From Escherichia coli (GTDB taxonomy: Bacteria; Pseudomonadota; Gammaproteobacteria; Enterobacterales; Enterobacteriaceae), in the NCBI RefSeq assembly GCF_041886205.1, contig NZ_CP169029.1: 64,000 nucleotides of DNA; one strand, given 5' to 3'. Below the pieces are notes generated by a model that did no database searches, was not told the origin of the DNA, and saw nothing but the letters and a program-made list of their open reading frames with translations. A program made the position numbers and the translations under genes. Shown piece after piece: positions 62,687-63,199 of this stretch (its first letter is position 1; every line of letters begins with the position of its first letter).

Positions 62687-63199
62687 TTAGCTGAGGCGTT
62701 GAGGACCAGCACGGATGCCTTGCGCCTGGCTTATCCAGACGGGCGTGCTGAATTTTGCTTGTGGGGTAAAATGCGCATAATCAATGCGATAACCCTTTTC
62801 AGACGGCGTGCCTTCCTGGGTCAGCAGCGCGCTGAGCGTATCCAGTAATGCAAGATGTTGCGCCTGAAGAGGCAAAGATTCTTCAGCAACGGGCAGCGTT
62901 TGCGGTGCCATTGCGAAGGAAAGATGACGGATTACCGTGCGAATGGCATGTTGATGCCAGTAATCAACGGAATAGTTCGAATTCGGGCGACGCGTGTTCG
63001 CTTCCAGCAGGGCCAATTGACCAAAGTTAACTTTGGCTGAAGGCTCGTGGTTGCGGGTTGTCGCTTTTGCGGGCGCGTTTGGTTCGGCGGCGTTGCTGAG
63101 CGCAGGCAAACCTAAACTCGCCGCGACCATCCCTAATAAGAGATGCGGCCAGAAGTAGCGTTTACCAAACTGTCGCCAGCGCGTCAGTATTCCACTCAC
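62687..63199 (-). CDS. secM: Secretion monitor SecM (translation-arrest leader peptide regulating secA)
   Basis: ORF 62687..63352; start refined to GTG at 63197-63199 ([23 protein letters not shown]); arrest motif [17 protein letters not shown] near C-terminus; 170 aa. Confidence 0.93.

Follow-up and report, generated by a model that had tools for sequence, protein, structure and literature searches.

When SecM arrests translation, peptidyl-tRNA carrying Gly165 is held in the ribosomal P site with Pro166-tRNA in the A site, and peptide-bond formation is prevented by the RAG motif together with the A-site proline; the stalled ribosome disrupts a stem-loop that sequesters the secA Shine-Dalgarno (SD) sequence, and the arrest is released when the Sec machinery pulls on the signal-bearing nascent chain (PMC4737659, PMC10987492, PMC10951299). 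Small-type SecM (PF10818 / NF038363), VemP, MifM and the RAPP peptides are likewise exported arrest peptides encoded upstream of a protein-localisation gene (PMC10987492). The locus described here, found in a 64,000-nt stretch of Escherichia coli DNA (the window), has the same general layout as these systems but belongs to the long type of SecM, the small-type models scoring below their cutoffs (20.9 versus 26.1 bits and 25.9 versus 45 bits). It is like SecM of E. coli K-12 (b0097, NP_414639.2 / WP_000014321.1) in its length of 170 residues, its GTG start and TAA stop, its arrest motif, its 61-nt spacer and its position between lpxC and secA, and unlike it in carrying Thr170Ser and seven synonymous substitutions, including GGC to GGT at Gly165. 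From WP_000014320.1, the accession common to LHM10-1, a Nissle 1917 derivative, N96 and many others, the encoded protein does not differ at all, the QRLS end included, whereas at the DNA level the window is unlike most carriers of that protein, its GGT165 haplotype occurring in only about seven genomes.

The secM coding sequence occupies positions 62687-63199 on the minus strand (170 codons plus stop), from a GTG at 63199-63197 to a TAA at 62689-62687, as obtained by reading the minus strand over 62400-64000 and translating 62687-63199. Its product matches both the Pfam SecM profile PF06558 (195.9 bits, curated cutoff 25) and the NCBIfam SecM equivalog NF002799 (231.2 bits, curated cutoff 100), and RefSeq annotates secM with identical boundaries and the same GTG start in K-12 (b0097, 107705-108217) and also in LHM10-1, a strain identical to the window in sequence at the secM locus. 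Comparison with the reference protein, which the initial annotation had proposed as a check, shows 169 of the 170 residues to be those of K-12 SecM. The solved E. coli ‘Secretion monitor’ chain 9vvi_6 agrees with the product throughout residues 1-165 (E = 7.7e-110), well outside what chance would give, and the product also matches 8qoa_6 and 3jbv_z, both of them nascent chains in arrest. The regulated gene, secA (59920-62625, minus strand, 901 aa), begins with an ATG at 62625 on the same strand as secM and was recognised from its open reading frame, its annotation and the Pfam domains SecA_DEAD, P-loop_SecA, SecA_SW, SecA_PP_bind and SEC-C. Between the secM stop and the secA start lies a spacer of 61 nt (62686-62626) with the same sequence as in K-12. 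The initial annotation had called this a secM arrest leader upstream of secA with a 61-bp spacer; the profile matches, the RefSeq annotation and the identity to K-12 and to 9vvi_6 bear out the first statement, and the spacer is exactly as it was described.

The gene order lpxC-secM-secA-mutT is intact in the window. Of 5,426 complete E. coli genomes searched with a query of 901 bases spanning the end of lpxC, secM and the start of secA, 5,424 carry the locus once, and the annotation there is always lpxC / secM / secA. Two of the 5,426 genomes gave no match to this query and three matching records are labelled plasmids; both observations probably reflect replicon mislabelling or assembly issues. 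Short plus-strand ORFs of 41-84 aa overlap secM; the matching RefSeq records leave them unannotated, and we treated them as chance. Upstream of secM, scanning the minus strand for consensus promoters gave no sigma-70-like site; the only match (62638-62610) is at chance level, with one found against 0.9 expected.

The arrest motif of SecM is present in full. Residues 150-166, encoded at 62752-62702 on the minus strand, fit the pattern F....WI....GIRAGP exactly, and they are identical to the corresponding residues of K-12 SecM and of chains 8qoa_6 and 3jbv_z, and the same as the arrest sequence given in PMC4737659 and PMC10951299. Every conserved position (F150, W155, I156, G161, I162, R163, A164, G165 and P166) is in place on exact alignment, among them the essential R163, G165 and P166 of FxxxxWIxxxxGIRAGP; the initial annotation had named the loss of the Trp, Ile and Gly-Ile-Arg-Ala-Gly-Pro positions as what would count against it, and had correctly put the motif at about 62702-62752 with the critical proline at its end (P166, 62704-62702). 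Over the whole length that would have been synthesised at the arrest point (residues 1-165), the nascent chain has the same sequence as chains whose structures were solved in arrested ribosomes. The Gly165 codon, which would stand in the P site of the arrested ribosome, is GGT here (62705-62707, minus strand) and GGC in K-12, Nissle and N96; the Pro166 codon, which by the published mechanism would stand in the A site (PMC10951299), is CCT (62702-62704, minus strand).

Folding of the secM-secA junction predicts the second element of the system, a helix that would mask the secA ribosome-binding region. In the fold of 62760-62600 (minus strand), the core CUCAACGCCUC at 62703-62693, which begins in the Pro166 codon and reaches into the Leu169 codon, is paired with GGGGCGUUUGAG at 62645-62634. 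Extended by its outer pairs, the predicted 5’ arm covers 62703-62690, the Pro166 to Ser170 codons, and the 3’ arm covers 62647-62634 as judged from minimum-free-energy pairs and pairing probabilities. The 3’ arm includes an SD-like GAG (62636-62634), located 8 nt before the secA AUG and presumably the secA SD. This GAG is predicted to be paired with a probability of at least about 0.99; the probability of being unpaired is 0.00-0.01 for the GAG and 0.00-0.04 for GGGGCG, and the secA AUG and the 8 nt preceding it are predicted to be unpaired. A stem-loop that sequesters the secA SD and that the arrested ribosome would overlap is thus predicted, with modest support from shuffled sequences (z = -2.48 for the 161-nt fold of 62600-62760). 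The core helix is unchanged in the K-12, Nissle, N96 and window alleles. Of four substitutions in the N96 spacer, three fall in the loop, one removes the partner of extra pairs outside the core, and none touches the core itself. None of the core pairs varies among the E. coli alleles compared, so these alleles show no covariation in the core helix. Rfam holds no family matching the secM-secA leader, either at the gathering threshold over the whole window or at E up to 10 over 62500-63500, where the sole match is a meaningless one to a snoRNA (E = 6.9).

The predicted fold of the junction depends on the bases included. The initial annotation had suggested that the spacer can form a structure masking the secA SD and that folding 62620-62700 would confirm it. 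The helix is indeed predicted, but only once the 5’ arm starts in the Pro166 codon; in the suggested range a helix forms whose energy does not differ from that of shuffled sequences (z = -0.33), so the confirmation expected of that fold did not come. We discarded 62620-62700 as a fold window, as it clips 62703-62701, the very bases of the 5’ arm that pair with the GAG, and used 62600-62760 and 62620-62704 instead. A further hairpin, predicted from folding energy, lies directly upstream of the SD-masking helix at 62706-62751 (minus strand), inside the sequence coding for the arrest motif.

Taken together with the published mechanism, these features allow a proposal for how the locus would work. 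SecM would be translated from its GTG, and its long N-terminal signal sequence would guide the growing chain to the Sec machinery. With Gly165 in the P site and Pro-tRNA at codon 166 in the A site, F150xxxxWIxxxxGIRAGP166 in the exit tunnel would block peptide-bond formation and arrest the ribosome. As far as can be judged from an inferred footprint, the arrested ribosome would occupy the 5’ arm of the helix, 62703-62690: a P-site codon at 62707-62705 with about 15 nt protected downstream of it would cover the whole arm, so that arrest and helix would be mutually exclusive. In the absence of a ribosome, the 5’ arm would pair with 62647-62634 and hide the secA ribosome-binding region; with the arrested ribosome sitting on that arm, the secA site would be freed and secA translated. 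Active SecA/SecYEG would pull on the nascent chain and release the arrest, and a low secretion capacity would accordingly raise secA translation.

Compared with K-12, secM in the window carries eight substitutions, of which seven are synonymous and one, at nt 509 of the gene (window 62691), changes codon 170 (62690-62692, minus strand) from ACC to AGC and hence Thr to Ser. The initial annotation had read the tail as QRLS and given QRLT for K-12; it was right on both counts, the two differing by this single base. A 79-base query that isolates codon 170 found AGC170 with an identical spacer in no fewer than 1,658 of some 5,415 complete E. coli genomes, among them O157:H7, O145, Nissle 1917 and ATCC 11775, the type strain, and ACC170 with an identical spacer in 2,722 genomes of the complete E. 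coli collection. Ser170 is a common natural polymorphism and not an error or an anomaly. The synonymous change of GGC to GGT at Gly165 (nt 495, window 62705) has a very different distribution: among 5,411 complete E. coli genomes, just 7 have the exact 61-mer that contains it (LHM10-1, VE-T9, XJ5.2, CP52E, ET201, 6EVA and wlxctx60), and this base marks a rare lineage haplotype. The count of seven genomes could be taken to mean that Ser170 is itself a rare allele, a reading ruled out by the codon-170 query, which places the rarity on GGT165. One glycine tRNA reads both GGC and GGU, and the arrest is set by the peptide sequence; for both reasons no functional effect of GGT165 is expected.

Could Ser170 be more than a polymorphism? 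AGC170 might be functionally distinct, either because the G at 62691 lengthens the masking helix and lowers basal secA translation or because serine alters the turnover of SecM in the periplasm. With AGC the junction is predicted to fold at -15.4 kcal/mol, with ACC at -13.6 kcal/mol, and the AGC allele gains the extra pairs 62691-62646 and 62690-62647. However, the 11-bp core helix and the pairing of the GAG are the same for the two alleles, and one of the extra pairs is lost in N96, where its partner G is mutated with no compensation. Residue 170 comes after the point of arrest and has yet to be synthesised at the moment of arrest, so that it would be outside the nascent chain while the ribosome is stalled. 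Moreover, both alleles are very common (1,658 versus 2,722 genomes), which suggests near-neutrality. We therefore think it unlikely that AGC170 differs in function, whichever of the two routes is invoked. The narrower proposal, in which AGC170 would be a regulatory variant acting through the two base pairs that G 62691 is predicted to add to the SD-masking helix (predicted ddG of about -1.8 kcal/mol), we would hold only as a long shot. If it were true, AGC170 lineages would have a lower basal set-point of secA translation than ACC lineages such as K-12.

The N-terminus of SecM is set by the GTG at 63197-63199 (minus strand), which stands in K-12, LHM10-1 and the window alike. The initial annotation had identified this codon correctly; as it is the annotated start in K-12 and LHM10-1, it is the long-established normal start of the gene and not a peculiarity of the window. 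A G-rich GGGATGG lies 7 nt upstream of it. Reading from this codon, codons 1-37 (63089-63199, minus strand) encode the signal sequence, assigned from the hydropathy profile, the identity of residues 1-37 to K-12 and the literature: SecM residues 1-37 are given as the secretion signal in PMC6993859, which cites Sarker et al. 2000, and the revision of the secM start by Sarker, Rudd and Oliver 2000, cited in PMC6993859 and PMC10987492, is described as yielding an atypical signal peptide of residues 1-37. The layout is that of an N-terminal Sec signal sequence, with a basic n-region (R7, R9, K13 and R14), a hydrophobic core at about residues 16-30 and the sequence SNA|AEP; mean Kyte-Doolittle hydropathy is 1.45-1.86 over residues 16-35. 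The NCBIfam equivalog aligns from residue 3, and the solved chain 9vvi_6 begins with MSGILTRW.

Other in-frame start candidates are TTG 63352, GTG 63274, ATG 63130 (Met24) and TTG 63109. Translation from the first in-frame ATG, Met24, would give a protein of 147 aa; this ATG is present at 63130-63128, and the alignment to the Pfam SecM model begins no earlier than residue 24. Against such a start, the basic n-region of the signal peptide (R7, R9, K13, R14) would be lost, RefSeq places the start at the GTG, and the revised start reported by Sarker, Rudd and Oliver 2000, cited in PMC6993859 and PMC10987492, makes residues 1-37 the signal. A Met24 start is, in our view, very improbable. The GTG at 63199-63197 is accordingly the start we retain, and the earlier warning that ATG-only calling would give a wrong N-terminus holds, the wrong N-terminus being Met24. 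The same warning had blamed that calling for an ORF track beginning at 63352; this part does not hold, as 63352 is the TTG of the maximal ORF and not an ATG artefact.

That TTG falls in the intrinsic terminator of lpxC (63351-63403, minus strand), which consists of a hairpin at 63403-63360 followed by nine U at 63359-63351, just after the lpxC stop. The terminator folds at -30.3 kcal/mol (z = -6.08), and none of 200 shuffled sequences was as stable. A consensus terminator scan did not detect the lpxC terminator, which has a 10-nt loop and an interrupted stem, because the loop exceeds the limit of the scan; folding recovered it. A 221-aa product of the maximal ORF from TTG 63352 can be set aside almost entirely: the frame is open from 63352, but the TTG (63352-63350) sits in the U-run of the terminator, which makes it a mechanical extension of the ORF, no annotation compared (K-12 and LHM10-1 RefSeq) uses it, the N-terminus given by the GTG is where the NCBIfam equivalog and chain 9vvi_6 start, and its 51 additional residues would bury the SecM signal sequence.

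Beyond the locus, all 64 kb of the window align collinearly with E. coli LHM10-1 (NZ_CP037903.1, 3926587-3990586) at 99.94% identity, with 40 substitutions and no indels. Twelve of these 40 substitutions cluster in 1.2 kb of gcd (30602-31781, within gcd 29679-32069 on the plus strand), a pattern suggestive of a short recombined segment, the rest of the 64 kb being nearly identical. Several Rfam matches lie elsewhere in the window. The Salmonella sRNA family STnc40 (81.7 bits) is matched at 59875-59944 on the minus strand, where it covers the closing codons of secA (stop 59920-59922) together with the spacer to mutT; naRNA4, a nucleoid-associated ncRNA family of REP-type repeats, is matched twice in the yacG-mutT intergenic region (59278-59355 and 59395-59471, minus strand; 78.4 and 78.9 bits); and the tp2 sRNA (103.4 bits) is matched at 47890-48003 on the plus strand, between pdhR and aceE and on the strand opposite to both.

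In summary, we read the locus, with a probability of about 97%, as the E. coli secM-secA regulatory unit with its arrest and SD-unmasking mechanism. The reading is based on sequence identity, gene order, the arrest motif, the features of the signal peptide and the predicted helix; elongation arrest, export-driven release and SD unmasking are drawn from the literature and would apply here by analogy, and no evidence in this analysis contradicts the reading. The secM of the window is thus already known, a textbook arrest leader that carries a common C-terminal polymorphism. For annotation, three points follow. The difference between QRLT and QRLS is a frequent natural variant, a correct SecM signal peptide needs GTG starts to be enabled in ORF callers, and the maximal ORF in the secM frame over-extends into the lpxC terminator. 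Beyond such annotation hygiene the finding matters little; the reference has the same arrest motif, signal sequence and spacer.
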